Assembly: GCA_043754515.1 (NCBI GenBank)
Contig: JAYUUO010000189.1
Coordinates: forward strand, 1 to 32,105
Length of the DNA stretch: 32,105 nucleotides
From: Armatimonadota bacterium
GTDB lineage: Bacteria; Armatimonadota; Armatimonadia; Armatimonadales; Armatimonadaceae
Direction of reading: 5' to 3'
This document shows, one piece after another, positions 9,848 through 31,846 of this stretch. The position numbers and the translations under genes were made by a program. Each line of letters opens with the position of its first letter. Within the stretch, counting starts at the first letter, position 1. Under the pieces are notes generated by a model. It worked only from the letters and a program-made list of their open reading frames with translations, was not told where the DNA came from and did no database searches.

Positions 9848-10805
9848 GTGAGGTGTATATTGTACCCTGCCGGAGAGATAAACGGGCAGACGCCGGTGGG
9901 TTCGGGGCCTTCGCTACATCGTGCCGCAACCGATTCCAAAACTCAATCTTCGGCACTCGCGACAGCCCCGAAAACTGCGCGTCGCCCGTCTCGATCACGC
10001 ACCAGATGCCGTCCATCAACTGCCCAATGTCCACGGCGATGTAGGGAGATCCGACGTGGCGGGTGGCTTCGCGGGCGAGAGCGCGGATGGCGTTGTCGTC
10101 CCCGCACGACAACTTTTCCGCGCCGCCGTGGTCGCCCTCCCAGTAGTAACCGATCCCGACCACCGCGCCGTTGAAAACGAAAACGCGGAACTCGCGCCCC
10201 ATCGGGAAACCGTTCGGCGCATGTCCGGCTATGCGTGGCGGGAGCAGTTCGCGCAGAACCACGCGCCCGCGCGACCGATCTGCGAGTCTCAAAAGCGCGG
10301 CGACGAGAGGTGCCAACTCCTCGCGCGTTTCGGCGACACACGCCTTCCACCCGGCGGCCTTTCGGGACTGCACCGCGCCCTTGACGAAAACGGGAGGCCC
10401 ACCTAACGCATCCAGCGCATCCGAAAGTAGCGCGGAGTCGGCGGCGGTGACGAACACGCTCCGCGCCGTCAGATCGGCGATTTTTGGGTAGGCGCGGTCA
10501 AACTCCTGCGCATCGAGATGCTGATCGGGAGAGTTTAGTAGCAGGAGATTCTTCGCGCGGGCGACCCCGTATATCGCCGCGTACCGGGACGGCTCCGGAA
10601 TGTAGCCTACCCAGAACGCGGCGGTCCGCACCGCCCGCGCGGGGATGTGAAGCAGCGCGTTCTCCGCCGTCTCGCAGGCGTCGAAACTGGCGGGGATCGT
10701 GTACACGGACGCGCCCGCGAGACGCGCCGCGCCCGCGCTCGCCGCTATATCCCGTGCGCTCGCGGACGGTTCGAGCTGCTCGGCGGCCTCCGCGAGGATG
10801 ATCAC
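9828..10805 (-). CDS. ATP-grasp domain protein (DUF4343/R2K-like)
   Basis: PVFVKG.VQSRK, REFRVF and YIAVDIGQ...WCVIETGDAQFSG; ATGA overlap with accA. Confidence 0.75.
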   Translation of the reverse strand: MIILAEAAEQLEPSASARDIAASAGAARLAGASVYTIPASFDACETAENALLHIPARAVRTAAFWVGYIPEPSRYAAIYGVARAKNLLLLNSPDQHLDAQEFDRAYPKIADLTARSVFVTAADSALLSDALDALGGPPVFVKGAVQSRKAAGWKACVAETREELAPLVAALLRLADRSRGRVVLRELLPPRIAGHAPNGFPMGREFRVFVFNGAVVGIGYYWEGDHGGAEKLSCGDDNAIRALAREATRHVGSPYIAVDIGQLMDGIWCVIETGDAQFSGLSRVPKIEFWNRLRHDVAKAPNPPASARLSLRQGTIYTSHESHRG

Positions 10806-15900: not shown

Positions 15901-16634
15901 GGCACGGACCGGTCTCCCCGCTTCACGACGGGTGGCGCAAAAAGCACGTTCGCGGGGATGTCGGACGATCCGGAGGTCGCGAGAACAAGCGGTAGCCACT
16001 TCGACGGGTTCGCGATGTCGGCTTCCGTCTTGACGTCGGGCGCGAACGACGAGAAGGATCTTCCGCTCCGGCTACGGATGACGACGTTGATCTTGAAGGG
16101 CATCCCCGCCCTAACGCTTCCTTCCGCGAGACCCAGTTCTTTCCACGGGATCGCGAGTTCCACGGTGTAGCCCCTGTCAATGTCGTCGGAGCGGTTCAGC
16201 GTCCCTCGCACCGTCACCCCGTACTTGATCGAGAAGACCGGCTTGGGCGCAAAGGCTTTGTCGGCGGTATCCCCCGCGAGGAAAGTGAAACCGCCCGCCG
16301 CCGATACCAGCATCGCGTGGGTGTTCGCGTCGGGCGTGTCTCCCGTCGCCTCGCCCGTCTGTATATACACCCCGACGCTGTCGTCTTTCGTCGGATCGGA
16401 GAGCGGAAGGGTGTTCGTGCCTAGCACATCCGCGTCATCCACCATCATCGCGACGTATATGTAGCGGTCATCCCAGGTCGCCTGTCCCTGTGCCAGCCCG
16501 GACGCGGATTTCGTCGCCGGGGTTGCGACTTGCGCGGAGGAAGGTCGGGCTAAGGTAAGGGCAACGGTGGCCAGGGAGAGGGTGAGCGAGCACAACAGCG
16601 GAGTCGCGGTTGCGGCGCGAAATGTTCGATTCAT
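12906..16634 (-). CDS. Large secreted multidomain carbohydrate-associated protein: CBM9/DOMON-like domain, Pro-rich linker, DUF5010/GH99-like barrel, NBR1-Ig-like repeats, C-terminal beta domain
   Basis: Signal peptide; WDDRYIYVAMMVDD...GYTVELAIPW (CBM9-like); PKPTPKP linker; WH..LLYEMRRSGVD...IDSWNDFARGT...YG.RYLDLT; V.V.N.G...LSYRW and LPRDVAPGE Ig-like motifs. Confidence 0.7.
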   Translation of the reverse strand: MNRTFRAATATPLLCSLTLSLATVALTLARPSSAQVATPATKSASGLAQGQATWDDRYIYVAMMVDDADVLGTNTLPLSDPTKDDSVGVYIQTGEATGDTPDANTHAMLVSAAGGFTFLAGDTADKAFAPKPVFSIKYGVTVRGTLNRSDDIDRGYTVELAIPWKELGLAEGSVRAGMPFKINVVIRSRSGRSFSSFAPDVKTEADIANPSKWLPLVLATSGSSDIPANVLFAPPVVKRGDRSVPPLIDGVMKAAGEWPAAGKFTFAAPVPNAAAAPKPTPKPAVVAPLDNTPPPLTLTAASLSGIEPLVFARYRIDFQGDIRKPTPFQGTFDPTNGRFLLADEPPTGAGPWFSSDRASWHRGLLYEMRRSGVDVALVSVGGPEAPTGNADDKALLVMTEALREMTEDGLPTPKVALELNLTRLSTDGAPTDVSTTEGRARLYAAVRRFFAVVPPMFRSRVTLPVSAGGVPAYPVFFAGAGITGTDGAGWTDALRESFASEFGAESGGATLLFVGGVDFDAKKSPGLAAGGVPLLTGGAAMSGVLPLQVIQPGLETPEKIVGRKDGDTFKAAWQTALAAKPKWYVIDSWNDFARGTEVVASRQYGTRYLDLTRINSVQIGNLEGIDLRWRTNDVPRRLRVGQTAPVRVSVQNGGGVALRSEDGYALSYRWRQGDTVVAEAPLRTRLTQAFLPTQTRSFLVGLTSLSQDASGKLAPLPPGEYSLEVDFLKLKDPSDLLGAGKYLAESGVAPLVVPVSLYADDRQSVVFGDTTTPVLLQAGMSYPVTVETRYMGADDLAVGAAALTWQLISTDGKTVAATGSAPVPDVLPSGVLVPVLVNLALNDPAGLPVQPSYPELPSGRGMAGGGYTLRWFLTRTDSTEAVPGELTERVAVYGGDEEARFLLPGNVPESVEANSSFTINVPLVNRGSLSWKQSEYVIGAHWYFGDGMEARWKPALTVPLPRDVAPGEAITVKLPVRSPETDGAYILVPDVARVPDDYFSTRPVSRVGDIAPVFIRVTGGRLTFLDLSKEFNVDGVASESRPGDGDMDERGSSFPAESFPPDRFGLGALRTPKPTSPEPVGVGTGKKPRKLPPPAYPSGYYADVSTSARRISFRYGSTADGAKNAVACAKQIISVPKGNYVGLHLAAAATGGQTESVPLLFTYSDKTTETVTVSVRDWNEAQSPTGDAIATMTRRKRTPKGDEAKASYLRHVIAPTNVGKQLVSISLPDNLRVKILALTLDR

Positions 16635-17125: not shown

Positions 17126-19897
17126 ATGAACACATCTTCCTTCTTTATATCGGACCCGCGTTGCGACGCGCGGGTCAACCCGCTCGGCACCGGCAGCGAC
17201 GCCCCCCGCTTCTCCTGGAAATTAAGCGCGACCGATCCCGACCGGCGCGGGCTTCGGCAGACCGCGTACCGCCTCCGGGCGGCGTTCGACCCGACCCTCC
17301 TCGCGGCGGGCGCGACAGCCGATCTTTTCGATTCCGGCATGGTGACGACCGGTGACTCGGTGAACATCCTGTACGCGGGTAGGCCGCTCGCGTCGCGGGA
17401 GCGGGCCTACTGGAACGTGTCCGTCACAAACGAGACGGGCGAGACGGCGACGTCAGAGACCGCGTTCTGGGAAGTGGGCCTACTCGCCGCAGACGACTGG
17501 CGGGGCGCGGCATGGGTCGGCGGCACACTCACGGGCGGGTCGCACACCCCCGCCCCTCCGCCATACCTGCGGAAGACCTTCACACTCAACTCTGTCCCGG
17601 AGGACGCGCGGCTCTACATCACCGCGCTGGGGGTTTACGAAGCCTATATTAACGGCACGCGCGTCGGGGACGATATATTCTCGCCGGGCTGGACGGATTA
17701 TAACAAGCGCGTTCAGTACCAGACATACGACGTCACGGGTCTGCTACGGGCGGGCGAGAACGTGCTCGCGGCGGTGCTCGGCGACGGCTGGTACTGCGGC
17801 CACGTCGGCTGGAGGGCGCGGCAGGAATACGGGGATAGCCCGGCACTTCTGGCGACGCTGGTCGCGGGTGAAACCGTGATTTCTACGGACGAGACATGGC
17901 GCACGGCGACCGGTTCCATTCTCGAGTCCGACATGCTGATGGGCGAGTCGTGCGACGCGCGGCGCGAGCCGACCGGGTGGGTGGAATCGGGGTTCGCCCC
18001 CGGCGACGCATGGCAGGTGGTAGTACCACGCGCTGACCCCGGCATCGAGCGCAGCCCCATGCTCGCGCCCGCCGTTCGCGTTTCCGAGGAGATCGCGCCT
18101 ATCGGCGATCCTCGGGAGATCCACGGCCTGCCCGCGCGGACATATATCTACGACTTCGGGCAAAATCTGGTCGGCAGAGCGCGTCTGACGATCAAAGGGA
18201 ACGCGGGTACTACCGTGCGCCTCCGCTTCGCCGAGGTGCTAGAAGGCGGCCCCGCCATGACCACGAAAGGATCGCTGTACCTCGCGAATCTGCGCGGCGC
18301 GCGGGCGACCGACTACTACACGCTGAAGGGTGACCCCGATGGCGAAACCTGGGAGCCGCGCTTCACGTTCCACGGCTTCCGCTTCGCCGAGCTGAGCATC
18401 TCCGAGCCAACCCACCCGGCGGCGCGGACAGGAACCGCGCCGATGCCTCCGGACCGGGGCACGCTGACTGCCATCGTGCTTCATTCCGACATTGCGCGCA
18501 CCGGCGACTTCGAGTGCTCCGACCCGTTGATCAATCAGTTGCAAAAAAACATTGATTGGGGACAGCGCGGTAACTTCCTGGAGGTGCCGACTGACTGCCC
18601 GCAACGCGACGAGCGGCTCGGATGGACGGGGGACGCACAGGTGTTTGTCCGCACCGCCGCGTGGAACCGCGACGTACAGGCGTTCTTCCACAAATGGCAA
18701 CGCGACCTGTCCGACTCCCAGGATGCGAGCGGGAGTATCCCCTCGGTCGTACCGAACATCGCCCAGCTTGGTGGCGACGGCGGCCCCGCGTGGGCGGACG
18801 CGGTCGTCATCTGCCCCTGGACGCTGTACCAGTGCTACGGCGATGCCGCGATACTTGAGGAAAGCTACGACTCGCTGACGCGCTTCATGGAGTCGCTTTC
18901 GGTCGTGAACAGCCGGGATCACATCCGCTCGTACGAAGGCATGTCTGGCCACCGGGGGTACGGCGACTGGCTCGCGCAGGACGGCACGGGGAAGGTAGAC
19001 GGCGGCACGCCCAAGGACTTGATCGGGACCGCTTTCGTGGCGTATGACGCGCATCTGATGGCGAAGATCGCCCGTGTTCTCGGCAAAACCGACGATGCCG
19101 CGAAGTACAAGACGCTGTTTGAAACCGTTCGCGTTGCGTTCCAGCGGCGGTACGTCACGCCTGACGGTCTGGTGTATCCCGGCACACAAACGGCATACGT
19201 GCTCGCGCTCCATTTCGGTTTGCTTCCAGAAAACGCACGCGGGGGGGCACTCGCGGCACTTATCGCGGACATCAAAGGTCGCGGGGATAAACTGACCACG
19301 GGGTTCGTCGGCTCGCCGTACCTGCCGCACGTCCTTTCCGACAACGGTCGCGCCGACATCGCGTTCAAACTACTGCACCAGAAAAACTGGCCCTCGTACC
19401 TGTACGCCGTCACGCAGGGCGCGACCACGATCTGGGAGCGGTGGGACGGCTGGACGCATGATAAAGGCTTCCAGGACGCCGGCATGAACTCGTTCAACCA
19501 CTACGCGTACGGGGCGATCGGGGCGTGGCTGTACCAGCGCGTCGCCGGGATTGACCTGGACGAAGCCGCGCCCGGCTACAAGTACATCATACTCAAACCG
19601 ATCCCGTTCGGGAGCGGCTTGACGTACGCCCGCGCCCATCTAGAAACCGTGTACGGGCGGGTCGAGAGCGTGTGGAAACTTGCGGAGGATGGCGCGTTCT
19701 CGTGGGACATCATCGTCCCCGCGAACACCAGCGCGGTAGCGACGCTCCCAGACGGCGTCGTCGTTGACGCGGCGACCGAAAGCGGTAAGCCGCTCTCCGA
19801 GGCGTCGGGGGTTAGCGTCGGGAAGGGCGGAGTGTTATCCCTGGTTCCCGGCAGTTACCACTTCGTCATGCCGGGGAGCGAAAAGAGCGAGAAGTAG
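17126..19897 (+). CDS. Alpha-L-rhamnosidase (GH78)
   Basis: PRFSW, ALGVYEAYING, PGWTDY, YDFGQNLVG, PRFTFHGFRF, PTDCPQRDERLGWTGD, GATTIWERWD and MNSFNHYAYG; no signal peptide. Confidence 0.95.
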   Translation: MNTSSFFISDPRCDARVNPLGTGSDAPRFSWKLSATDPDRRGLRQTAYRLRAAFDPTLLAAGATADLFDSGMVTTGDSVNILYAGRPLASRERAYWNVSVTNETGETATSETAFWEVGLLAADDWRGAAWVGGTLTGGSHTPAPPPYLRKTFTLNSVPEDARLYITALGVYEAYINGTRVGDDIFSPGWTDYNKRVQYQTYDVTGLLRAGENVLAAVLGDGWYCGHVGWRARQEYGDSPALLATLVAGETVISTDETWRTATGSILESDMLMGESCDARREPTGWVESGFAPGDAWQVVVPRADPGIERSPMLAPAVRVSEEIAPIGDPREIHGLPARTYIYDFGQNLVGRARLTIKGNAGTTVRLRFAEVLEGGPAMTTKGSLYLANLRGARATDYYTLKGDPDGETWEPRFTFHGFRFAELSISEPTHPAARTGTAPMPPDRGTLTAIVLHSDIARTGDFECSDPLINQLQKNIDWGQRGNFLEVPTDCPQRDERLGWTGDAQVFVRTAAWNRDVQAFFHKWQRDLSDSQDASGSIPSVVPNIAQLGGDGGPAWADAVVICPWTLYQCYGDAAILEESYDSLTRFMESLSVVNSRDHIRSYEGMSGHRGYGDWLAQDGTGKVDGGTPKDLIGTAFVAYDAHLMAKIARVLGKTDDAAKYKTLFETVRVAFQRRYVTPDGLVYPGTQTAYVLALHFGLLPENARGGALAALIADIKGRGDKLTTGFVGSPYLPHVLSDNGRADIAFKLLHQKNWPSYLYAVTQGATTIWERWDGWTHDKGFQDAGMNSFNHYAYGAIGAWLYQRVAGIDLDEAAPGYKYIILKPIPFGSGLTYARAHLETVYGRVESVWKLAEDGAFSWDIIVPANTSAVATLPDGVVVDAATESGKPLSEASGVSVGKGGVLSLVPGSYHFVMPGSEKSEK

Positions 19898-19937: not shown

Positions 19938-20690
19938 CTACGGCGCGATCGCCGAGAAATCACTACCGACTAAACTGGAAGGCTTCCGCCATTTCGCGGA
20001 GCCGTCATAGCGCAGTGTCACGAAGCCGTCGTTGTGACGGAGCGGGTAGTGCGTGTGCTTCGTGTCCGTGCTGACGGGGAACGCCTTCCAGGGGAGGTTC
20101 GGGTTGTGTGGCAGGACTTGCGTGTCGGCGCAACCAGGGGTACGGGCGTGCTCCCACACCTGCATCACCGACGAGTTCACTACGTCGGAATCCGGCCTGC
20201 ACATTGGCCCGTCGGTGACGTAGCTCATCGCGTATCCGACCTGTCCGTCATAGCCGGGGCTGTGGAATATCTCGAACGATTTGAAATACGGAAGCAAAAC
20301 GCCCGACTTCGGGCCGGGATAATAGGCGGAAGGCGGTAGCGCGGGTTCCACCGGCTTGCTAACGTCGAACGGTGCCCACCACGTCTCGTTCGCGCCGGTG
20401 GAGGTGGTCGGCGAGGATCCCGCGCAGAGCGAATCGGCGGGCGTGTCCGGGCAGGAGCGGTAGCGCGGGTTAGTGCTATCGTAGTCGCCCCGGTACATTG
20501 CGATGGCGAGGCCGATCTGTCGCAGGTTCGCGATAGAACTCGCCTTGCGGGCGTTCGCCCGCACCGCCGCGAACACGGGGAACAGGGTGGCTACGAGGAG
20601 CGAGATAATGACAACCACGACGAGCAACTCGATCAGCGTGAATGCCAAAGTTGTTGAGGGAGTACCGCGCCGGGCTTTCTGAGCATGCAT
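19938..20690 (-). CDS. Prepilin-type N-terminal cleavage/methylation protein with DUF1559-like body and H-X9-DG motif
   Basis: AFTLIELLVVVVII...FPVF..VR.NARK....NLRQIG.A..MY..DYD; C-terminal HNDGFVTLRYDG. Confidence 0.88.
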   Translation of the reverse strand: MHAQKARRGTPSTTLAFTLIELLVVVVIISLLVATLFPVFAAVRANARKASSIANLRQIGLAIAMYRGDYDSTNPRYRSCPDTPADSLCAGSSPTTSTGANETWWAPFDVSKPVEPALPPSAYYPGPKSGVLLPYFKSFEIFHSPGYDGQVGYAMSYVTDGPMCRPDSDVVNSSVMQVWEHARTPGCADTQVLPHNPNLPWKAFPVSTDTKHTHYPLRHNDGFVTLRYDGSAKWRKPSSLVGSDFSAIAP

Positions 20691-21386: not shown

Positions 21387-22166
21387 CTAGTGCGTGCTGA
21401 TACTCGACAGGGTGATCTCGATGTCCTCGCGGTTCTCGATCCGGTCAATCTGACCGTCATTAACCCATACCACGCGGTCTGAGACGTTCAGCATACGCGG
21501 ATCGTGTGTCGCCGAGATGATCGTCACGCCCTCTTCTTTGTTTAGCTCGCGTAGCAGTCCGATGATCTCCAGTCCCGTTTTAGCGTCGAGGTTCGCGGTC
21601 GGTTCGTCGGCGAGGATTATGGACGGGCGGTTCGCCAGGCTCCGCGCGATCGCGACGCGCTGTTGCTGGCCACCAGAAAGTTGCGACGGCTTGTTGTGTA
21701 AGCGGTGCCCGAGTCCCACGCGCTCTAGAATCTCCATCGCGCGTGCGGTCCCCTCTTCGGCGGGCATCCCGGCGAAAATGGTAGGCAGTTGGACGTTTTC
21801 GAGAGCGGTCATCGTCGTCAGCAGGTTGTACGACTGGAAAATATAGCCGATGTTGTGGCAACGCAGGAACGCCATCTCGGACTCGCCTAGCTGCGCGATG
21901 TCGGAGTCGGCGATAAAGATAGAGCCGCTATTCGGGCGGTCAATCCCGCCGATCATGTTGAAGAACGTGGACTTGCCCGACCCGGACGGGCCCATGATCG
22001 AGATATACTCGCCGCGCCGAATATCGAGCGATATTCCCTTCAGGGCGCGCACGACCTCCGTGCCCATCTTGAACTCTTTGACCACGTCGCGGGCGCGAAC
22101 CACATACTCAGTTCGCACATCGCCGCCCGCGCGGACTTTAGTCGTCGGTGCTTCCGTCATTGCCAT
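21387..22166 (-). CDS. ABC transporter ATP-binding protein (LolD/MacB-type)
   Basis: Walker A GPSGSGKST, IGYIFQSYNL, signature LSGGQQQRVAIAR, Walker B ILADEPTANLD, H-loop ATHD. Confidence 0.96.
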   Translation of the reverse strand: MAMTEAPTTKVRAGGDVRTEYVVRARDVVKEFKMGTEVVRALKGISLDIRRGEYISIMGPSGSGKSTFFNMIGGIDRPNSGSIFIADSDIAQLGESEMAFLRCHNIGYIFQSYNLLTTMTALENVQLPTIFAGMPAEEGTARAMEILERVGLGHRLHNKPSQLSGGQQQRVAIARSLANRPSIILADEPTANLDAKTGLEIIGLLRELNKEEGVTIISATHDPRMLNVSDRVVWVNDGQIDRIENREDIEITLSSISTH

Positions 22167-22185
22167 AGTAGTAAACCTTTATGCG

Positions 22186-22836
22186 TCACACATCAATGCG
22201 GAGCGCGGCGGCGGGAGGGATGCTCGCCGCCTGCCGCGCCGGAATATAGGTCGCGATGGCGGACAGTACCGCGCCGACCGGGATACAGAAAAGGAACGAG
22301 TGCAAAAAATCAACGCCATGGAGCGAGCCGTACCAGACCGTTCCGGCAGGTGCTTCTTTAGGCACGCCCGCGATCATTTTCACCAGCACGATCGCGCCGG
22401 TACCCACGACCCAGCCGATCGCGGACGCGATCAGCCCCATCATGACAGACTCGATCATGAAGATGCGCACCACGAACGCGTCCAGCGCGCCGAGACATTT
22501 CATCGTGCCGATCTCCCGGAACCGCTCCGAAACACTCATCAGCATCGCGTTCGTGATCCCGACCGTGCAGACCAGGAGCGAGAGGCCGATCAGCCAGTTG
22601 GAGCGGGCCTCCTCGGACGCGTCCACTTTGCCCGCGATCGCTTTCGAGATCAGCACCGACGCTAAAAACGCGATGCCGAGCGCGACCCCGCCCGCCGTGA
22701 TCAGCGAGCGGCCGAAACGGATGCGGATCGAACCCAGCGCGAACTGGAACGATTTACCCCACGGCAGTTGCGGTTGCGAGTAGACTTTCTCTTTCCGCTC
22801 CGGCCCCTTGGCCCCGTCTGTGATTGTTACACTCAT
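22186..22836 (-). CDS. Small FtsX-like ABC permease, essentially lacking an extracytoplasmic domain
   Basis: RSLITAGGVALGIAF, GITNAMLMSVSERFREIGTMKCLGA and YIPARQAASIPPAAALR. Confidence 0.9.
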   Translation of the reverse strand: MSVTITDGAKGPERKEKVYSQPQLPWGKSFQFALGSIRIRFGRSLITAGGVALGIAFLASVLISKAIAGKVDASEEARSNWLIGLSLLVCTVGITNAMLMSVSERFREIGTMKCLGALDAFVVRIFMIESVMMGLIASAIGWVVGTGAIVLVKMIAGVPKEAPAGTVWYGSLHGVDFLHSFLFCIPVGAVLSAIATYIPARQAASIPPAAALRIDV

Positions 22837-22844
22837 AGTTAATT

Positions 22845-23291
22845 TTATACCGCCCGCTTGCGCGTCGCCTTCGCCCCCGCCGCGTTCGATTTCGTCGGCG
22901 ACCGGGTCGCCACGAGTCGCCGCTCGGCGAGCATCCGCAGGTACGCCGTCACCGACACTTCCGCCTGCCGTTTATTGAGCCGGTACGACATCCCAATCGC
23001 CTTCGCTATCGTCTCCACGGTGTGCGACCCGTCGCACATCTCCCAAACGTCGGAGCCGATCTCATCCAGCTCCACCTTCTTGAAATCAGGGACGGTTAGC
23101 CACTTAGCCACCAGGTCTGCCCAGCGTCCGCGCAGGCGCGGGATGCGTAGCAGTGCCACGAGTGCCTCGTCCGAGCGGCGCGGCTCCCGCGCCCATTCCA
23201 CCTTCGGGTTGCGCTGAGGCCGCACGCAGAGCATCTGCTCCCGCGTGATCTTTGGCTTCCCGGCAATTCTTTCCTTTAATGCTTCTAACAT
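22845..23291 (-). CDS. Stand-alone PqqD-family / RiPP recognition element-like protein
   Basis: VELDEIGSDVWEMCDGSHTVETIAKAI...VTAYLRMLAERRLV matches the PqqD winged-helix pattern (L...G..IW...DG..TV..I......FL..L....LI). Confidence 0.8.
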   Translation of the reverse strand: MLEALKERIAGKPKITREQMLCVRPQRNPKVEWAREPRRSDEALVALLRIPRLRGRWADLVAKWLTVPDFKKVELDEIGSDVWEMCDGSHTVETIAKAIGMSYRLNKRQAEVSVTAYLRMLAERRLVATRSPTKSNAAGAKATRKRAV

Positions 23292-23301
23292 AGCACAATA
23301 C

Positions 23302-23820
23302 CTATTTCAGTTCGACCAGAACGTTTTTAACCCTTACATCGCGGGAGGAGTCCGTCTCGCCCAGTGTCAGCATCCCCCACGGATACCTCAGAGACTCCAT
23401 CTTCTTATTCCTATCCACTTCCTGGTGATATATATGTATCATTTCGTCATTAGGCGAGGCGCATTTGTCCCATACCCAGAGGCTTATCCATATCATTTTG
23501 TCGTTTTCAAAGTCCAGAGAACATTGCAACTTCAGATCATTTACCTTGATGCGCTTGAGTATAAATTTATGGTATCTTTTCAACTCGTAGACCGCTAGTT
23601 CCGATACGTACCTGTCCTCGTTTTCCGACAAGTAGATGGTGATAAAGTCGTTACGGTAGGCCTTCTTGTACCATGAACGCAACGCTAATACATCGCGCGT
23701 TGTCATGTCCGCCGAAACAGTAATCCCATCCCAGACGAGAACTGGCCTCGGCGTGAGCGTCAGCCGGAACTTCTCTGGTGCCAGATTTAGGTACTCCGCG
23801 AAGGGCATGTAGCGCGTCAT
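23302..23820 (-). CDS. Hypothetical protein, AT-rich relative to its flanks
   Basis: 172-codon ORF filling the gap between operon genes (6 and 10 nt spacers); rich in K, Y, I and N; visibly lower GC. Confidence 0.65.
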   Translation of the reverse strand: MTRYMPFAEYLNLAPEKFRLTLTPRPVLVWDGITVSADMTTRDVLALRSWYKKAYRNDFITIYLSENEDRYVSELAVYELKRYHKFILKRIKVNDLKLQCSLDFENDKMIWISLWVWDKCASPNDEMIHIYHQEVDRNKKMESLRYPWGMLTLGETDSSRDVRVKNVLVELK

Positions 23821-23826
23821 CGTTTA

Positions 23827-24819
23827 CTATCGCTGTTCCCCAGTCGCCGCCGCTATTCCCCCCACCAGGTCGGCCTCGCCGCGCGGACGCCGCGCCCCGA
23901 CCAGGTAGATTTTGTTCGCCGGTTCGTCCTCCCACGCCACGCCCGAATAGCGCGTCGCGGGTCTCTGGAACCGCGTCGCTTCCCGGACCGCCTCGATCAT
24001 CGGCTGACCGAACGCCGGCCCTCCCTGATAGGTCACCGCCGCGTTCCCCCGCACCTGCCCCTCCGATACGGTGTAGCGTGCCTCGGTTAGTTCCCCTTTG
24101 GCGTTCGCCGCGACCCAGTCATCGAGATACGCCTGTTTGCGTGCCACGTTGGCGACCGCCCATTGCTCGACCGAAAGCCGCGTCGTGCCACGCGCGAACG
24201 AGAGGCGCAGGTACACGTTCATCAGTTGCGCGGCTCGGAGCGCGAAATCCGACGGCACCACCGTATTCAGATCATAGATCGCCCAGACTCGCTTGCCGTC
24301 CTCCCGGTCGTGGCACTCGATGGACCCGAGGATCGCGTCCGCCAGCCCGACCACGCCCCCCTTGCCGGAGATCTCCCCGGTCACCTGCGCGATAGTGACG
24401 CGGTGGCACCGACCGCAGTACCAGATCGCGCCGACCCCGCGCTTGTCGCCCGTCCAGGTGAACCCGGTCGCGACACGCTCCGGATGATCGCGCAATACCC
24501 CGCGCGGCGCGTCCGCGTTCTTCGTGGTCACGGCGATCTTCTTTTTCTTCGCCGTTTCCCGGAGCAGACGGAAGTACGACTCGCGCCGCGCCTCGACATC
24601 GGGCGGCTTGATCGCGCCCGGCTTCGCCCAAGGGAGAAGACTCGTCGGCAACTTCTCCGTCGCCCACTTGAGTTCTAGGGCCAGGTTCTCGCCGTCGTCC
24701 GCCCGGAAATACCCCTCGCCCTCGCCGCCCGAGTAGCCCGTCAGGTCCCACTCGTCCGGCACGCGCACCGTGTAGCCCTGCCACCCGATCAGTTTCCGGT
24801 ATTTGCCCTGCTCCCCCAC
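23827..24819 (-). CDS. Hypothetical soluble protein of the ABC/OPT/PqqD operon
   Basis: Long GC3-rich ORF with GWQG..VRVP.EWD and WYCGRCHR. The likely start is GTG at 24819, because the longer 24921 start overlaps the upstream gene. Confidence 0.75.
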   Translation of the reverse strand: MGEQGKYRKLIGWQGYTVRVPDEWDLTGYSGGEGEGYFRADDGENLALELKWATEKLPTSLLPWAKPGAIKPPDVEARRESYFRLLRETAKKKKIAVTTKNADAPRGVLRDHPERVATGFTWTGDKRGVGAIWYCGRCHRVTIAQVTGEISGKGGVVGLADAILGSIECHDREDGKRVWAIYDLNTVVPSDFALRAAQLMNVYLRLSFARGTTRLSVEQWAVANVARKQAYLDDWVAANAKGELTEARYTVSEGQVRGNAAVTYQGGPAFGQPMIEAVREATRFQRPATRYSGVAWEDEPANKIYLVGARRPRGEADLVGGIAAATGEQR

Positions 24820-24842
24820 AGGCGCGGGCGCGGCGGGCGCGG

Positions 24843-26915
24843 TTAGAACGGCAATGGCTGCACCGCCTTGGAGATCAGAGCGAGCGCGATGGCACCCATC
24901 GAGATAAGGCCCGTGCCGCACGCGAACCCGGCCAGAAGCACCGGCGCGTAGTCACGCCACTTCTGCTCGCCGATCTTTTTCGCGAAGTAGTACTTCGACA
25001 GGATGCCGCCGAACAGCATCGGGATCGTGTCGCCGGGGTACGCGTTCGCGCCGCCCGCCGCGCCGTAGAACGCCAGGATCGGGGCCTTCACCGCGATCAT
25101 GATTGCGTACAGCATCATCGCAACCACGCCGCCGCCGACGATAATCAGCGGTTTAAACGCGCTGAGCACGAAGCTCGCGCCGTCCGGCTTGTTGATCTGG
25201 TTGAAAATCGCCTGGTTCGTCGCCGCGATCGGCCACAGTTTCTGCGCGAATGGATACTGCGCGGACGGGATCGGCGACGTGTGCCAGATGAACTGCCAGT
25301 AGAGGAAGCCGCCAATCAGGATCAGCGGGAACATCAGTAGTTCCGCCTTGATGATAGACGTGAACTTGGTCTTCGTCAGTTCGACTTCGCGGAAAGACTG
25401 CGCGAGATAACCGTAGTCATGGAGCGGGAGCGGCGCGAACCAGACGTCCACGCGCTGGTAGTTCGACTTCATCACGGTGAGTTCTTTAAGGAACGGGAAG
25501 TTGATCCCCTGCGACGTCAGGCCGTACATCCGCGCGGCGATGAACGAGTTGAGTGGCGTCCAGACCAATCCATACACCACGAGGAGCCAGAGCGGAAACA
25601 TCGGGATCAAAAAATGCGTGGTCGCGATGTAGGCGATGGTCGCGCCGAACCAGACGCCGAAAGCCCATTTGATCGTGGCAGGGCTGTCACCACGGCCTTT
25701 GGGCACCACGTTCCACGCTCCGCGCCCGTCCTTACCCCCACCCCGCGCCGCGTCCACGGTTGCCTTAACGACCATGTACAAGCCGATGATCGCGATGGCG
25801 ATCTGGATACCGATACCCGCCGACATCCAGAAATCGAAGTTGGTCGCGATGCGGGTGTTGATGCTCTCCATGCCGGGGTGCCACTTCGGGAGCATGCCCA
25901 TGCGGTAGAGTATCGGGTTGCCGATCCACTGACAGAGGATGCTGGAGACGGTCGTACCGACCACCATGGAATAAGGTAGCACGAAGCCGATCAGCACCTT
26001 GCCCAGGTCACCCGACAGGTTGACCGGCGCGGCGGGCATGAACGTTTCCGTAGACTTCATGAAGTCGGCGAACGGGATCGGGATCAGCGTCACCGCCGTG
26101 CCAAACACGGTGGACGTGAACACCGGGATGGCGATATAGAACGCCCCGAAGATCAGCCCGATGATGGTGCCGGTGGAAAACACGCGCCAACGCCACGACT
26201 CTTCTTTGCTGGAGGCTTCGGCGAGCGCGGTCGCGCCCGACGCCGCCACGGACGCCAGCGGGAACGGCAGCCGCTCGATGTCGGACGTCGCCCGGAATAG
26301 GATATAGCCCGCCGGTATCCATGACACGCGTTCCAGAATCTGCGTCAGGATCAGCATGCCCATCGCGCCGCCGTGCGGCGTCCACCAGTCGCGGTGCAGG
26401 AACGAGCGTTGCACGATGCCCGCCGACTCCGGTTGGGGCGTCGCGAACCAGGGGATCTCGCGGGCGATGCTAGCGGCTTGCGGACTCTGGATGAAGTATT
26501 GGTTCCAGATCAGGTTGCCCATCGGGCCGCCCGAGATGCCCCGGTCGCCTAGCGCGACATAGGCGAGGCCGCCCGCGATGTAGTACAGCAGGTAAATCTC
26601 CTGGCGCGAGAGCGGCAGGAACGAGCGGCGGGCGACCTCGGCGAACAGCACGATGGTCACCCACTGTGCCGCCGAGCCGAGGCCCTGCCCCGCGACCAGG
26701 CCCAGGTAGATGGCACCCGGCATCATGATCAGGGCGACGAAGAGCGCGCCCAGGATGGACTTGATCGTGAAGCCTTCTTTGAACTCGGACTCCATATCCT
26801 CGCCCACGTCGGCGGTCTCGTCCACCCGTTCGCGGGCCGACTCGATGTCCTCCGACTCCTCGAACCGAGCCGAGCCGCCCGCGCTATCAGACCTGTTGTT
26901 TTGATTATCTGCCAC
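24843..26915 (-). CDS. Polytopic membrane protein, OPT/YSL oligopeptide transporter-like
   Basis: Many TM segments; F..GFTIKSILGALF, ERLPFP.A, and C-terminal YAPVLLAGFACG..L resemble OPT features; AAGGAG RBS before the GTG start. Confidence 0.75.
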   Translation of the reverse strand: MADNQNNRSDSAGGSARFEESEDIESARERVDETADVGEDMESEFKEGFTIKSILGALFVALIMMPGAIYLGLVAGQGLGSAAQWVTIVLFAEVARRSFLPLSRQEIYLLYYIAGGLAYVALGDRGISGGPMGNLIWNQYFIQSPQAASIAREIPWFATPQPESAGIVQRSFLHRDWWTPHGGAMGMLILTQILERVSWIPAGYILFRATSDIERLPFPLASVAASGATALAEASSKEESWRWRVFSTGTIIGLIFGAFYIAIPVFTSTVFGTAVTLIPIPFADFMKSTETFMPAAPVNLSGDLGKVLIGFVLPYSMVVGTTVSSILCQWIGNPILYRMGMLPKWHPGMESINTRIATNFDFWMSAGIGIQIAIAIIGLYMVVKATVDAARGGGKDGRGAWNVVPKGRGDSPATIKWAFGVWFGATIAYIATTHFLIPMFPLWLLVVYGLVWTPLNSFIAARMYGLTSQGINFPFLKELTVMKSNYQRVDVWFAPLPLHDYGYLAQSFREVELTKTKFTSIIKAELLMFPLILIGGFLYWQFIWHTSPIPSAQYPFAQKLWPIAATNQAIFNQINKPDGASFVLSAFKPLIIVGGGVVAMMLYAIMIAVKAPILAFYGAAGGANAYPGDTIPMLFGGILSKYYFAKKIGEQKWRDYAPVLLAGFACGTGLISMGAIALALISKAVQPLPF

Positions 26916-26980
26916 TGACTGTGTCTACCGCTCCTTAGTTTAACGGTGCCGCCCATTTTCAATGCGCGCCACGCCCGCGC

Positions 26981-29900
26981 CTACCGCGTCGCGTCCGCCA
27001 CGCTCGGGGACGCCTCACCCGCCGGCGACGTCGCTTCCGTCACCGTCTCGTTCAGGTACCGCTCGCGCTCGCCTTCCGACAGCGTGCGCCAGATCAGGAA
27101 CTGCTTGCGGAGCGTGTTCAGGAAGCGGCGGTTCACCCGCTTCCAGTTGGAAATGTCGCCAGAGACGCGTGTCAGGGTGAGACGCAAGTCGTACACGTCC
27201 TCGAAATCGGTCGGCACCGTTTCCAGCCGGATGAACTGCGAAACGCCTAAGTCGAACGGTGCCAGCCACGCCTTACACGCGACCCGGTAGGCCGTGCCGT
27301 ATTCCGAGTCGAACGTGTCCCTAGCAATGTTCTCCGTGATGAAGTCGCCGACCGAGTAGCCCTCGTACGAGCGGAACCACTCTGCGAGGAAGCCGTTGAC
27401 CCCCCACGCCTGGTTCCCGGTCACCGCGAACGGCAACCGGATCCGCCAGTCGTCGCCCTCCGGCTCCGGTAGCACCCACGTCTTGCCAGACGCGGGCGTC
27501 GCCACTTCCGCCGCCTTGCGGGCGGGCCAGATCGTAGAAAGGAGCACCACGGCGACCACGATCAGCGTGGACAGCACGGCAGATACTGACGAGAAGTTGA
27601 GTTGCAAGCCGCTCATCAGGTGGAACGTGGACAGGATTTTCGACACTCCCTGCCCGAGCACGTAGCCCGACACCGCACCCAGAATCGCGTACACGAACGC
27701 CTCCGCCATAAACAGCGTGCCGATATTTGTCGCGTTCAAGCCGATGGACGAAAAGACGTGTATTTCCTTCACGCGCTCGAACACGGAACCCAGCATCGTG
27801 TTGAGCACGATAAGCGCGGCGATAGCGATCGGGATGATGATCGTCTCGAAGCCGGTAGAACTGTTCGCGCCGATGGACGAGAACCGGTTGATCTTGCCCG
27901 CCGACGCCGCGTACAGGTTCATGTCAAACCGCTTCATCAGGTTGTTACGCAGATCGGACAGCACCCCGGCGTCGTCATCCGCATACCCGATGCCGACCGA
28001 GCGCAGATCGCCGCCCAGGTTCACCAGCGTCGTGTACGGGATGAAGAACACGACATCCGGGTCCAGATGCAGGTACTGCTGGAAGCCTGTGCTGTTATTC
28101 GCCTTGCCCTGCTGTTGCAGTTGCGACATCTGCACGAAGTCAACCGGGGTTAGCGGTTCCTGATCCAGGTCCTGCACGGTCTTGAATTTGTCCGGGTCGA
28201 GAATCCCGATCACGGTGTAGTTCTGGCCGGAGAACTCGATCTGCGCCGAGCCGACGTCCTTGTCCGAAATGCGCAGGGCGTCGGCGATCTTGCGCGGAAG
28301 GATCATCACCTGGCGATCCCCCTTCGCGAACCAGCGCCCGCCCGGCACGAGTGCCTTGTCCGCGCCGGTGATCTTCGCCTCTTCGGGCGACAGGCCGACC
28401 GCGCCCTTCGCGCCGAACTCGCGGTCCGCGCGTTTCACGGTCAGGAACGTCTGCTCTCCCGGCTGTGTCCCGAGGAACCAGCCGCGCGGCGCGACGAGAC
28501 GCGTCTTCCCGAACTCGTCGTCGAGGAGCCGGTACGCGACCTGTTGCAGGGAGTTCCAGTTCGGGTCGCGCATCAGAATGCCGTTGTAGGCGGGCACGCC
28601 CGGCGCAGGGACCTGGTTAAACCGCAGGTCGTCTACTATAGAGGTGAACGCGAGCACGGTGAACGTCAGTAAAACCAGAGTCGCACAGGTCAGCGCGGTG
28701 CGAGCCTTGCGCCGCCGCATGTTGCTGATGCCGAGCGAGAACGCCGCCGCCGCGATAGACCCGGAGCCCGCGTCCTTCTCATGCGTGCCCGTGGACTCCC
28801 GCGCGGAGTCTTTGAGCTGTTGCTCGAACTTGCCCCACACGAGCGATGTCACCAGTACCGAGAGCGCGAGCATGATGAACGACAGCAAGATGATCCCCGG
28901 ATTGAGCGTGATGTTGAACGCCGGGTGGATCGCCGCGAATATCAGAAAGACGCCGAGGAAGATACCGAACACCCCGAGCAGTTGACGCTTCAAGTCCGCG
29001 AAGCCGAAGAACAGCCGCTCGCCGAAGTAGGCGAACGGGATCATCAGGGCGAGGTAGAAGATGACGCCGTTCACGACGTCCTGTTGCGTCTTCGAGACGT
29101 TGGGGTAGGCGCGCGACTCGTAGCCCCAGGCCGCGCGGGAGAAGGCGTCGAACGCCTCGTAGTTGCGCGCCTTGAGCGCGTCTTCCGCCTTCGCGATATA
29201 AGTCTTCGCATCCGCGTGCAGTTTCACGACGCCCTGGTTGATGATGTTGTTGCGGCGGAGGCGGTCTATGCGGAACTCGTCCAGGCTCCACATGTCTTTC
29301 GCGACCGCGAGCGACGTGTTGGTGATCGCCGAGGAGCGCGACGAGTTGATCGCGTCCGAGCCGGCTCCCGCCCCCATCACATACCCCTCGCCCTCCGGGT
29401 TCTTCGACGTAGAGTTGATCAGCAGGAACCGGGTAGCGGCCGGGCCGGACCCCATCATGATCTTGAACTTGCGCAGGGAGTCTCCTGCTTTGGGCGCGCC
29501 GACGGCAGATTGTGCCGCCGTGAGCGGCGTATCACCATATTCGTTCCCGCGCCGCGCGAAGATGAGCGCGACGTCTTCCACGTACGAAATCCCCGCCTCC
29601 GGTTTCGGCAGCGCGAACCCGAACTGGCGCGGCTCGCCGTTCGAGGCACCGTCGAATATCGTGATGTCGGAGAGCGTTTTGAGTGCCTGCTGATCCACCA
29701 GGTCGAATATCGTCGTCGAGACGCACGGGAAGATGACGATGGTCGTTTCCTTCAGGCCAGACGTGATCTCGAACTCCGTCGGGAAGTCCTTGCCGGAAAC
29801 CCCCTTATCCGGCGCGTAGTCTATGTCGCCGGTCTGCGGATCGAGCCGGTACGCCGCCACGCTATGCGACGCGTTGTCGGCGGTCTTCGGCGGGACGCCC

Positions 29901-31846
29901 TTGAAGGCGAACAATGCCGCGCCATCCCGCGCTTTCTGCTCGGCGTCCTCGGCGACTTTGAACGCGGCGTTGACGGTCGCGATCCGCGCCGGGTCGCCGC
30001 TCGTCTTCGCGGCTTGTCTCTGAGTGTTCGCGGCGTCGAACGCGTCGCGCTTCATCTGCCAATCGTTCATCGAAACGCGCTGAATCCAGAATCCGCGCAC
30101 GCCCATGAACGACTTCGTGCCGGGGATAGAGGGATACCCGCCCACCGTCTGCGACGGGTACACCGCGAGCGCGTCGCCGATAGGGTCGTCCGGCACGAGC
30201 GACTTGCGCGGGTTGTACTCCCGCACCCGGCCCTTGATCGTCGCGAATCCGGAGCGCAGACCCATCCGCGTCCACTGCGACGGCTTGAACAAGGGGATCT
30301 GCTTCGTCGGTTCCGGCGAGTTGGGGTCGTTCGGGTCGTTGACATAGTGCTGGAACAGACACAGAAAGGTGCGCGCCTGGAATGCGAGGTTGGCGACGTT
30401 TACACGGTCCGGCGTGTCAAAGGGAGTATCAACCAGGTTTCGCGAGTCGTCAATGGAGGCGAACGTAACGCCGCTACCGCCCGCCATCCCGACCGCCTCG
30501 GAGTCGAAAGCGGGCTTGCCCGGAATGTAGTTGCGCCACGACTTGCCGTCAACCGGGTTCACGCCGTCCGCGAACGCCTTCTTCGGGTCGTTGCCGAACA
30601 CCTGCGCGACCTTGTCATTGTTCTCGCGGGCGACGCGGGCGATGTCGGAGAACAGGCTCTGCGTATCCTCGCGCACGTTGTAAAACCAGCCCTTGTAGAA
30701 GACGCCGATGCCGCGCGTTTGCGACGCCCAATCGAGGCCCGCCCAGAGGTAGATCGGCTCTTTCGGCTCCTTCTCGCCGCCGAACAATTTGGCAAACGGG
30801 CCGGGAACCTGCCAATCGTCAATATGCCGGTCAACCATCTCGCGCACGCCCTGCAACCCGAGGAAGTGACCCGATGTCGCGACGAACCAGATCGTGCGCT
30901 CGGAGCCGAGCTTCTTGAAGGTGCGCGCCGTTTGCAGGAGGCCCGCCATGCCCGCCGCCGCTTCCGCCGAGGGCGCGATAGTCGGCACCACCGACATGCC
31001 GTCGTAGTACGCCTGCACAACGATGATCTGGCGGGCTACCTTCGGGTCTTTCGACTTGCCGGGCAGGACGCCGATGAAGTTGCGCGCCTCGACGCTCTCC
31101 CAGGGCATGGACGCCTTCAGCGTCGCCACCGTGCCACGGGTGCCCGCCGCGAGCGCCAGCAATCCGGTCGCGTCGCGCCGCTTGACGTAGAAGCGGGGCA
31201 CGGCGACCGGGATCGAAACGAACTTCGCCTCCGCCTCCCCGCGCTGGGTGCGATCCGGCTCAATAAAGAGTATCGCCTTCGCACCGAGCCGGGGGGCGTT
31301 CATCCACTCGGAGCCGGAGTTGAAGTCAACCAGCACGATGGAACCGGCGACATCTTTGCCGTTCAGCGCGGACAGGGAGCCATTGCCGCCGTAGATCAGC
31401 GGCCCGGAAATGCCTTCGGGCGGGGTCTGCGAGGTGCGGACAAGGTTCGGCCAGATGCAGTTCAGCGGGATCGTCTTGCCGTTGACCGACAGCGTCGCGC
31501 CTTTGTCCATCGGCACGGTCGCGGTGAAGGTCTCAGTGCGGACATTCGCCCCACCGAAGAGGGAAACGAACTCTTTGGAAACATAGTCGGCGGCGTACCG
31601 CTCGCCGGGGTAGCCGACGACGCGCGAGCCATGCGTGGACAGTTCGCGGATCGTGTCGCGCATGGCGGCTGCATCCACGGTACCGGCGATGTCGCGGTAT
31701 TTCGTGGCGAGCGCGGCATCAATAGCGGCGCGGGACGCGGGCGCGAGCCAGCAGACCGCGAACGCGATCACTAACAGCGCAACCGGCGACACCGGTGAGA
31801 AATGGGCAAACACGCGGCGTCGGGCGGGCGCGGCGGTAATCGTCAT
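26981..31846 (-). CDS. 1621-aa fusion: signal peptide, PA domain, degenerate M28-peptidase-like domain, TM bundle, FtsX/MacB-type ABC permease, cytoplasmic C-terminal domain
   Basis: SRVVGYPG; GPLIYGGNG...DVAGSIVLVDF...LGAKAILF (PA domain); NFIGVLPG..IIVVQAYYD..RTIWFVATSGH (M28-like); NMRRRKARTALT and NTMLGSVFERVKEI.VFSSIG..WPARKA (FtsX); AAGAGG RBS. Confidence 0.88.
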   Translation of the reverse strand: MTITAAPARRRVFAHFSPVSPVALLVIAFAVCWLAPASRAAIDAALATKYRDIAGTVDAAAMRDTIRELSTHGSRVVGYPGERYAADYVSKEFVSLFGGANVRTETFTATVPMDKGATLSVNGKTIPLNCIWPNLVRTSQTPPEGISGPLIYGGNGSLSALNGKDVAGSIVLVDFNSGSEWMNAPRLGAKAILFIEPDRTQRGEAEAKFVSIPVAVPRFYVKRRDATGLLALAAGTRGTVATLKASMPWESVEARNFIGVLPGKSKDPKVARQIIVVQAYYDGMSVVPTIAPSAEAAAGMAGLLQTARTFKKLGSERTIWFVATSGHFLGLQGVREMVDRHIDDWQVPGPFAKLFGGEKEPKEPIYLWAGLDWASQTRGIGVFYKGWFYNVREDTQSLFSDIARVARENNDKVAQVFGNDPKKAFADGVNPVDGKSWRNYIPGKPAFDSEAVGMAGGSGVTFASIDDSRNLVDTPFDTPDRVNVANLAFQARTFLCLFQHYVNDPNDPNSPEPTKQIPLFKPSQWTRMGLRSGFATIKGRVREYNPRKSLVPDDPIGDALAVYPSQTVGGYPSIPGTKSFMGVRGFWIQRVSMNDWQMKRDAFDAANTQRQAAKTSGDPARIATVNAAFKVAEDAEQKARDGAALFAFKGVPPKTADNASHSVAAYRLDPQTGDIDYAPDKGVSGKDFPTEFEITSGLKETTIVIFPCVSTTIFDLVDQQALKTLSDITIFDGASNGEPRQFGFALPKPEAGISYVEDVALIFARRGNEYGDTPLTAAQSAVGAPKAGDSLRKFKIMMGSGPAATRFLLINSTSKNPEGEGYVMGAGAGSDAINSSRSSAITNTSLAVAKDMWSLDEFRIDRLRRNNIINQGVVKLHADAKTYIAKAEDALKARNYEAFDAFSRAAWGYESRAYPNVSKTQQDVVNGVIFYLALMIPFAYFGERLFFGFADLKRQLLGVFGIFLGVFLIFAAIHPAFNITLNPGIILLSFIMLALSVLVTSLVWGKFEQQLKDSARESTGTHEKDAGSGSIAAAAFSLGISNMRRRKARTALTCATLVLLTFTVLAFTSIVDDLRFNQVPAPGVPAYNGILMRDPNWNSLQQVAYRLLDDEFGKTRLVAPRGWFLGTQPGEQTFLTVKRADREFGAKGAVGLSPEEAKITGADKALVPGGRWFAKGDRQVMILPRKIADALRISDKDVGSAQIEFSGQNYTVIGILDPDKFKTVQDLDQEPLTPVDFVQMSQLQQQGKANNSTGFQQYLHLDPDVVFFIPYTTLVNLGGDLRSVGIGYADDDAGVLSDLRNNLMKRFDMNLYAASAGKINRFSSIGANSSTGFETIIIPIAIAALIVLNTMLGSVFERVKEIHVFSSIGLNATNIGTLFMAEAFVYAILGAVSGYVLGQGVSKILSTFHLMSGLQLNFSSVSAVLSTLIVVAVVLLSTIWPARKAAEVATPASGKTWVLPEPEGDDWRIRLPFAVTGNQAWGVNGFLAEWFRSYEGYSVGDFITENIARDTFDSEYGTAYRVACKAWLAPFDLGVSQFIRLETVPTDFEDVYDLRLTLTRVSGDISNWKRVNRRFLNTLRKQFLIWRTLSEGERERYLNETVTEATSPAGEASPSVADATR

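Follow-up and report, generated by a model that had tools for sequence, protein, structure and literature searches.

Here we describe an operon of seven minus-strand open reading frames (ORFs) in a window of 32,105 nucleotides (nt), positions 1 to 32,105 of contig JAYUUO010000189.1 of an Armatimonadota bacterium (GenBank assembly GCA_043754515.1). Six of the genes form a conserved core that joins a type VII ATP-binding cassette (ABC) motor and a PA/M28-fold ectodomain to a membrane protein of predicted OPT/YSL fold. Tight synteny, co-distribution among genomes and recurrence in archaeal-type loci support the initial annotation of this DNA in so far as it had read the operon as one membrane system. 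That annotation overlooked OPT-fold paralogues of the DUF6785/6784 family elsewhere in the same genome. We put at about an even chance that the six-gene core is a shared ATP-driven module serving interchangeable OPT-fold DUF6785 carriers encoded elsewhere, mostly for oligosaccharide import. A more specific version, which we hold tentatively and consider to fall somewhat short of an even chance, is that the motor mechanically drives OPT/YSL elevator heterodimers, whose one constant protein is joined by exchangeable DUF6785 partners that may number in the dozens, and that these would be a main entry route for oligosaccharides in Armatimonadota, Poribacteria and Bathyarchaeia.

Components of the operon

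The ORF coordinates (Table 1) place the seven co-oriented genes 65, 23, 6, 10, 8 and 19 nt apart, in agreement with the gaps of 6-65 nt originally reported. Six of the seven have host-like codon usage, with a GC content of 0.60-0.68 and a GC content at third codon positions (GC3) of 0.77-0.86. The closest named homologues are from Armatimonadota.

The motor genes were assigned from Pfam, NCBIfam and fold matches. The 259-amino-acid (aa) ATPase matched ABC_tran (E 1.5e-35) and carries Walker A (59), LSGGQ signature (163), Walker B (184) and H-loop (219) motifs. The 216-aa protein matched FtsX (Pfam, E 4e-18); the loop between its first two transmembrane (TM) helices is very short, leaving hardly any extracytoplasmic domain, and there was one strong match per genome in 5/5 genomes tested. 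In three loci (L107, L116 and L122) the small permease is 440-630 aa long, with an added region that gave no Pfam match. The 1621-aa giant permease starts with a hydrophobic segment, a probable signal peptide, and scored above the Pfam cut-offs for MacB_PCD (1050-1245) and FtsX (1337-1446). Its C-terminal half comprises FtsX TM1, a MacB-type extracytoplasmic domain, TM2-4 and a conserved cytoplasmic alpha/beta domain (~1466-1598). In the AlphaFold2 (AF2) model of residues 505-1610 (pLDDT 79.6, pTM 0.68) the FtsX/MacB core resembles MacB (Foldseek E 1e-11), FtsX 8hd0_C (VIA Z 15.1) and LolC/E. LolD was the best NCBIfam model for the ATPase, and scores fell below the NCBIfam equivalog cut-offs for LolD (231.7 vs 307.75), LolE (47.8 vs 439), MacB (24 vs 966) and FtsX_Gneg (29.6 vs 255). 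Judged by these matches, the motor is a member of the type VII ABC superfamily and none of its named equivalogs.

The N-terminal head of the giant (about residues 50-510) is of PA/M28 type. Pfam placed PA at 147-215 and M28 at 256-339, both under the cut-off, and PDB sequence matches related the head to the aminopeptidases 2ek8 and 6hc6, with MacB also matched. The head is followed by predicted beta domains (~534-840) and by a helical stalk leading into three extra TM helices (~844-1019), continuous with them in the AF2 model. Aligned with 2ek8, HHD is changed to YYD and AEE to GHF, and the NDD motif is lost. We compared the zinc-ligand columns over 49 Armatimonadota and 43 archaeal-type giant sequences. 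The first zinc His is Tyr280 in this giant, and the His is retained in 2/49 and 21/43 sequences, respectively. The Glu-Glu pair is His327-Phe328: position 327, where His replaces the catalytic Glu, is His in 49/49 Armatimonadota and 36/43 archaeal-type giants, and Glu at 328 occurs in 0/92 sequences. The column taken as the last zinc His (473) likewise holds His in 0/92. An active M28 peptidase was rejected because the zinc ligands are lost; by its residues the head is a pseudo-peptidase. Poribacteria giants (L018-L089) reach about 2350-2500 aa through large insertions in the head. The C-terminal domain had no PDB sequence match, and its weak Bet v1/Aha1-like fold matches (Z 8.2-8.6) are a lead only.

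The 690-aa protein matched no Pfam family and no PDB sequence. Its AF2 model (pLDDT 90.9) was matched by Foldseek to barley YS1 (7wst, E 1.1e-10), and the VIA comparison with YS1 gave Z 21.7 at a root-mean-square deviation of 4.0 over 550 aligned residues, with the next-best match at Z 5.7. The Pfam OPT model PF03169 (cut-off 25.8 bits) was passed by 13/40 of the homologues scanned. The model predicts an OPT/YSL fold with YS core and scaffold, and we refer to the protein as the core OPT. This genome has one strong copy. Its first hairpin is conserved (0.85 vs a mean of 0.64 over 44 bacterial alignment rows), and bacterial members have an acidic N-terminal tail that is short in archaeal-type sequences. 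Complex prediction of OPT residues 45-690 with giant residues 905-1072 or 1446-1602 scored 0.09 and 0.02 against a mark of 0.32, with the controls unfolded, and is evidence neither way. Seven homologues (P0123, P0126, P0129, P0132, P0133, P0135 and P0138) have large insertions in one loop (about query residue 572); loop insertions include beta-propellers, PDZ and FGE-sulfatase-like domains. Two tandem core OPT genes were seen in 10 loci of L018-L089 (Poribacteria). One ORF of a fragmented metagenome-assembled genome (L001:3022-10488) contains both giant and OPT, a single case of little weight.

Among the smaller genes, the 330-aa protein has no TM segment and no Pfam or PDB profile match. Its conserved CxxC and His are a possible metal site, and the Atlas placed DUF3805, Alr1449 and CdiI near it at about 0.8, which gives only a weak lead. 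The 148-aa protein contains a PqqD domain (Pfam, E 1.5e-10). In one complete genome a single ORF (L007:11339-12475) joins PqqD and the small FtsX, again one case of little weight. A biosynthesis or export cluster for ribosomally synthesised and post-translationally modified peptides (RiPPs), centred on this protein of RiPP recognition element (RRE) fold, would account for the PqqD domain, which weakly resembles the lasso and GeoRSP PqqD models. Yet the NCBIfam RiPP PqqD models all stayed far under cut-off, a scan of 25 window proteins found no modifying-enzyme family (it did not extend to short precursor ORFs), and the core spans the phylum at close to one copy per genome; we therefore rejected the RiPP cluster as very improbable.

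The 172-aa gene stands apart from this core. Its GC of 0.48 and GC3 of 0.65 lie below those of the other six genes, its protein matched no Pfam or NCBIfam family, and tblastn found a counterpart in no fetched locus, including 0/16 of the first set. No spanning joint for it was among the joints listed from the contigs of four DNA runs. Because the gene has low GC, no family and no counterpart, and other loci hold unrelated small genes, we regard it as a local insertion and rejected it as a subunit. Such small genes lie between giant and OPT at L002:6644-7502 and L006:6394-7806, so the operon tolerates insertions. The seven-gene machine originally proposed is in this respect reduced to six genes.

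Table 1. Genes of the operon in window coordinates, with the basis of each assignment
Feature	Position	Strand	Basis
Giant type VII permease, 1621 aa	26981..31846	-	Pfam, PDB sequence matches, hydropathy, AF2, fold searches
Core polytopic membrane protein of predicted OPT/YSL fold, 690 aa	24843..26915	-	AF2, Foldseek, VIA, homologue Pfam
Soluble 330-aa protein, GTG start at 24819	23827..24819	-	Conservation profile
172-aa low-GC orphan, insertion	23302..23820	-	GC, no match in other loci
Stand-alone PqqD/RRE-fold protein, 148 aa	22845..23291	-	Pfam PqqD
Small FtsX-type permease, 216 aa	22186..22836	-	Pfam FtsX, hydropathy
LolD/MacB-type ABC ATPase, 259 aa	21387..22166	-	ABC_tran, motifs

Co-distribution of the core with DUF6785/6784

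The core OPT profile matched 168/201 Armatimonadota genomes, and entire families were negative. We examined 56 Armatimonadota loci around strong OPT matches, 16 from a first search and 40 picked for family spread. The initial annotation had allowed that homologues might prove scattered without synteny; instead, the six genes lie in identical order in 38/56 loci and the giant adjoins the OPT gene in 49/56. The OPT gene stands alone in the other 7, and in 7/7 of these genomes the giant is located elsewhere. Among 75 further genome loci, mostly from Poribacteria, 67 have the order giant, OPT, 330-aa, PqqD and ATPase; in Poribacteria-type loci the small FtsX is encoded elsewhere (2/2 tested). The pair of giant and OPT recurs in Poribacteria and Desantisbacteria. 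Planctomycetota and Lentisphaerota are represented by cluster names alone, not by loci.

With a distant OPT alignment we retrieved 80 metagenome loci, called archaeal-type here; members of this distant OPT group carry the names Bathyarchaeia and Thermoprotei, and the individual contigs are probably of archaeal origin. The giant was present in 71/80 of these loci and in 39/40 of those of at least 12 kb, and the PqqD and 330-aa profiles matched 0/80. In the neighbourhood comparison proposed at the outset, giant and OPT thus stay together in archaeal-type loci, where the PqqD and 330-aa proteins were not found. The PqqD/RRE protein had been cast as the peptide adaptor of the machine, a role not evident in the universal core. 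Next to the core at one archaeal-type locus (L179:16577-20089) lie genes for two NamZ muramidases and a BadF-type kinase, a context that suggests peptidoglycan-fragment scavenging.

The second membrane gene of the archaeal-type loci belongs to DUF6785/DUF6784. A DUF6785-like gene was found in 45/80 of them and in 33/40 of the long ones. HHalign aligned DUF6785/6784 with the core OPT at 99.8% probability over 578 columns, and on this profile match the DUF6785/6784 proteins are OPT-fold paralogues of the core OPT. The genome studied here has a single operon, and its six DUF6785 genes, with mutual identities of 25-41%, are spread over six contigs other than that of the operon. The first hairpin of DUF6785, conserved in the core OPT, differs between subfamilies (0.51 vs a mean of 0.54 over 16 rows). 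In YS1 the hairpins have been proposed to help substrate binding (consulted part of PMC9691689).

DUF6785 follows the core closely. It was found in 38/38 core-positive genomes, with at least 1-22 matches each (matches, not copy numbers), and in 1/33 core-negative genomes (G187, 89% complete). The core-negative group comprises the 33 Armatimonadota genomes without a match to the core OPT profile, against which DUF6785 gives a faint signal of at most 21 bits. None of 14 control genomes had DUF6785. The giant was present in 18/18 and the 330-aa protein in 25/25 core-positive genomes tested, the latter with one match each. In the core-negative set a strong giant match was found in 0/33 genomes, ten of which had weak M28-fragment matches (E 1e-7 or worse), and the 330-aa protein in 0/33. 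Presence and absence split even within genera, with DUF6785 and the 330-aa protein giving the same counts (g26, 2/6; g46, 2/3). Five Poribacteria and Desantisbacteria genomes had 5-54 DUF6785 matches, and in one Desantisbacteria locus (L266) a DUF6785 gene lies within the operon. A universal essential function for the core was rejected, since it was not found in 33/201 Armatimonadota genomes and whole families are negative.

Genomic context of the DUF6785 genes

As a clue to substrate we compared the neighbours of 17 DUF6785 loci, six from this genome and eleven high-scoring ones from relatives, with 17 random windows from the same genomes (61/93 and 94/94 neighbours scanned, respectively). 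A glycoside hydrolase (GH) lies within three ORFs at 8/17 DUF6785 loci vs 1/17 random windows (Fisher P 0.017). L225 and L231 are examples rich in GH genes, with GH2, GH53 and GH127 next to DUF6785. Several DUF6785 loci are accompanied by LacI-type regulators and by DUF1559 prepilin-motif genes. Scanning 125 proteins, we found the archaeal-type loci to be rich in GHs, sugar oxidoreductases, URO-D-family and B12-binding proteins; their neighbours include GH4, 10, 15, 30, 32, 106 and 130 and NamZ. Given this mostly carbohydrate-catabolic context of DUF6785, the lost zinc ligands and the PqqD result in archaeal-type loci, a machine mainly for peptides or RiPPs, as the initial annotation had proposed, is not supported.

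The prepilin-motif genes bear on another explanation, in which the system resembles LolCDE or FtsEX in export or surface maturation. Here the OPT-fold proteins would flip or present lipid-linked or membrane-anchored cargo, such as a glycolipid, a lipoprotein or a DUF1559 pilin-like protein, and the motor would extract it or act on the wall. The resemblance of the permease to MacB, FtsX and LolC/E fits, as do prepilin-motif genes within 5 kb of 3/6 DUF6785 genes of this genome (9% background, P 0.013) and another that follows the operon. Across genomes, however, the prepilin link is not significant (7/17 vs 2/17, P 0.12), the neighbours are catabolic and not biosynthetic, and a core that extends to archaeal-type loci and went undetected in 33/201 Armatimonadota genomes is no universal envelope function. 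We consider this explanation decidedly unlikely. The prepilin-motif proteins may be binding partners of DUF6785 loci.

This genome has 58 prepilin motifs in all. The DUF1559 prepilin-motif protein near the operon, with an H-X9-DG-like motif, is encoded on the same strand about 700 nt downstream (19938-20690, minus strand) and converges on a GH78 alpha-L-rhamnosidase gene (17126-19897, plus strand). The gene divergent from the rhamnosidase (12906-16634, minus strand) encodes a protein of 1242 aa whose N-terminal domain is CBM9-like and which has weak Ig-like matches. Further off, an R2K-clade ATP-grasp gene (9828-10805, minus strand) lies between accA and a cation-efflux gene.

A proposed shared motor for swappable carriers

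From the genomics we infer that the operon products form a physical complex, and likewise that the core OPT and DUF6785 proteins heterodimerise, that ATP hydrolysis is coupled to the elevator stroke, and that the direction is import and the substrate mostly oligosaccharide. The cycle might run as follows. Two ATPases would bind the heterodimer of giant and small FtsX, as in type VII architecture. Because the small FtsX is almost without an outer domain, motion driven by ATP would pass to the giant and through its stalk into the three extra TM helices. The M28 head, with its zinc ligands gone, would serve as cap, receptor or lever and not as a protease. YS1 is described as a dimeric elevator transporter (consulted part of PMC9691689), and the core OPT might pair with one DUF6785 protein in the way YS1 dimerises through its scaffold. 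The variable DUF6785 hairpin would then determine the substrate, and the elevator stroke would be powered or gated by the motor. A role for the 330-aa and PqqD proteins as bacterial cytoplasmic adaptors, which might bind the acidic tail of the core OPT, is no more than a lead.

Several points weigh against this reading. To our knowledge, type VII ABC systems do not move solutes across the membrane. All coupling is deduced from gene order and co-distribution, and kin genomes are not independent. The small FtsX is adjacent in 1/80 archaeal-type loci (L174), which also has the sole orthologue-scoring ATPase. As to the substrate, 9/17 DUF6785 loci have no GH within three ORFs, and the archaeal neighbour scan was made without a background control. 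One DUF6785 subfamily adjoins different GH classes, which speaks against sugars as sole substrates. Single-copy DUF6785 is coupled in 4/4 annotated loci to an Rce1-like (CPBP) membrane protease of ~460 aa directly 3' of it (L255:8661-10034, L256:9198-10583, L257:9221-10606 and L258:4775-6166), which points away from sugars, and two of the six DUF6785 genes of this genome are near amidase genes. In the part consulted, a 2011 survey (PMC3061005) interprets the majority of prokaryotic OPTs, from their context, as carriers of peptides and one OPT subcluster as xylo-oligosaccharide carriers, with no mention of FtsX. Finally, YS1 is proton-driven without any ATPase (consulted part of PMC9691689), so the DUF6785 carriers might need no motor.

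The substrate points lead to the importer of peptides or muropeptides envisaged by the initial annotation, whose M28-fold head captures the substrate and whose RRE protein receives it. The OPT, M28, PA and PqqD folds are all peptide-related, and the Rce1-like protease, the amidase neighbours and the NamZ, BadF-type kinase and M55 peptidase genes at the archaeal-type locus L179 are in line with it. Against these stand the GH enrichment beside DUF6785, PqqD in 0/80 archaeal-type loci and the lost zinc site. As a general account this importer is unlikely; within the shared-motor reading, peptide handling may hold for a subset of carriers.

The co-distribution and the one-to-many copy pattern are explained equally if the operon serves proton-driven OPT-fold carriers as a dedicated machine for their assembly, insertion or quality control, needed to build or place them and not to power them. 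Inactive M28 heads occur in membrane-protein biogenesis complexes, for example in nicalin, nicastrin and GPAA1, and a chaperone role would be conceivable for the 330-aa and PqqD proteins. That YS1 runs on protons alone (consulted part of PMC9691689) also agrees with this view. Ordinary prokaryotic OPTs, on the other hand, occur without such an operon, as far as the consulted part of the 2011 survey (PMC3061005), where FtsX is unmentioned, goes. Folding also fits less well than a transport cycle with an outer head of 900 aa and an unvarying OPT subunit. We regard an assembly machine as rather unlikely.

Compared with type VII ABC systems (MacB, LolCDE, FtsEX, YbbAP, YtrEF and HrtBA), the operon shares the LolD-type ATPase, the four-TM FtsX core and the MacB-type outer domain, and as with LolC/LolE it has two different permease genes. 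It differs from them in the 900-aa pseudo-peptidase head, three extra TM helices and cytoplasmic C-terminal domain of the giant, in a small permease with hardly any outer domain and in the constant linkage to OPT-fold proteins. Unlike MacAB-TolC and LolCDE, it has no MacA, TolC or LolA in the operon. The transferrin receptor, nicastrin and nicalin are M28 pseudo-peptidase ectodomains whose zinc ligands are lost. The giant has the same PA and M28 arrangement as these ectodomains and as 2ek8 and 6hc6, here fused to an FtsX permease. The predicted core OPT fold matches OPT/YSL proteins such as barley YS1 (7wsr/7wst; consulted part of PMC9691689) over the whole chain, 550 residues. It differs from YS1, a stand-alone proton symporter and homodimer in the consulted part of that paper, in its 13% identity and in a gene that travels with an ABC motor and divergent paralogues.

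Group II energy-coupling factor (ECF) transporters have one shared ATPase module and many scattered substrate-specific integral subunits, some of them beside the module. The organisation described here may be likened to theirs, by analogy of genomic pattern alone. No Pfam match to EcfT or S-components was found on the seven operon proteins, and ECF ATPase models scored the operon ATPase under cut-off (154 vs 315 and 151 vs 330 bits). The parts of the system are known folds, and their combination lies outside described systems. As the initial annotation had claimed, no characterised system with this combination is described in the literature searched (openly accessible listings and abstract openings, with supplements and subscription papers outside the search), nor did DUF6785/6784 find mention there.

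If the shared-motor reading is true, two superfamilies thought separate, a mechanotransducing ABC system and an elevator carrier, would be coupled in a new way of powering uptake. DUF6785/6784, with up to 54 matches per genome, would gain a testable role. The system may then explain how glycan-degrading Armatimonadota, sponge Poribacteria and sediment Bathyarchaeia import breakdown products, and an organism's diet might be predicted from how many DUF6785 genes it carries and in what context.

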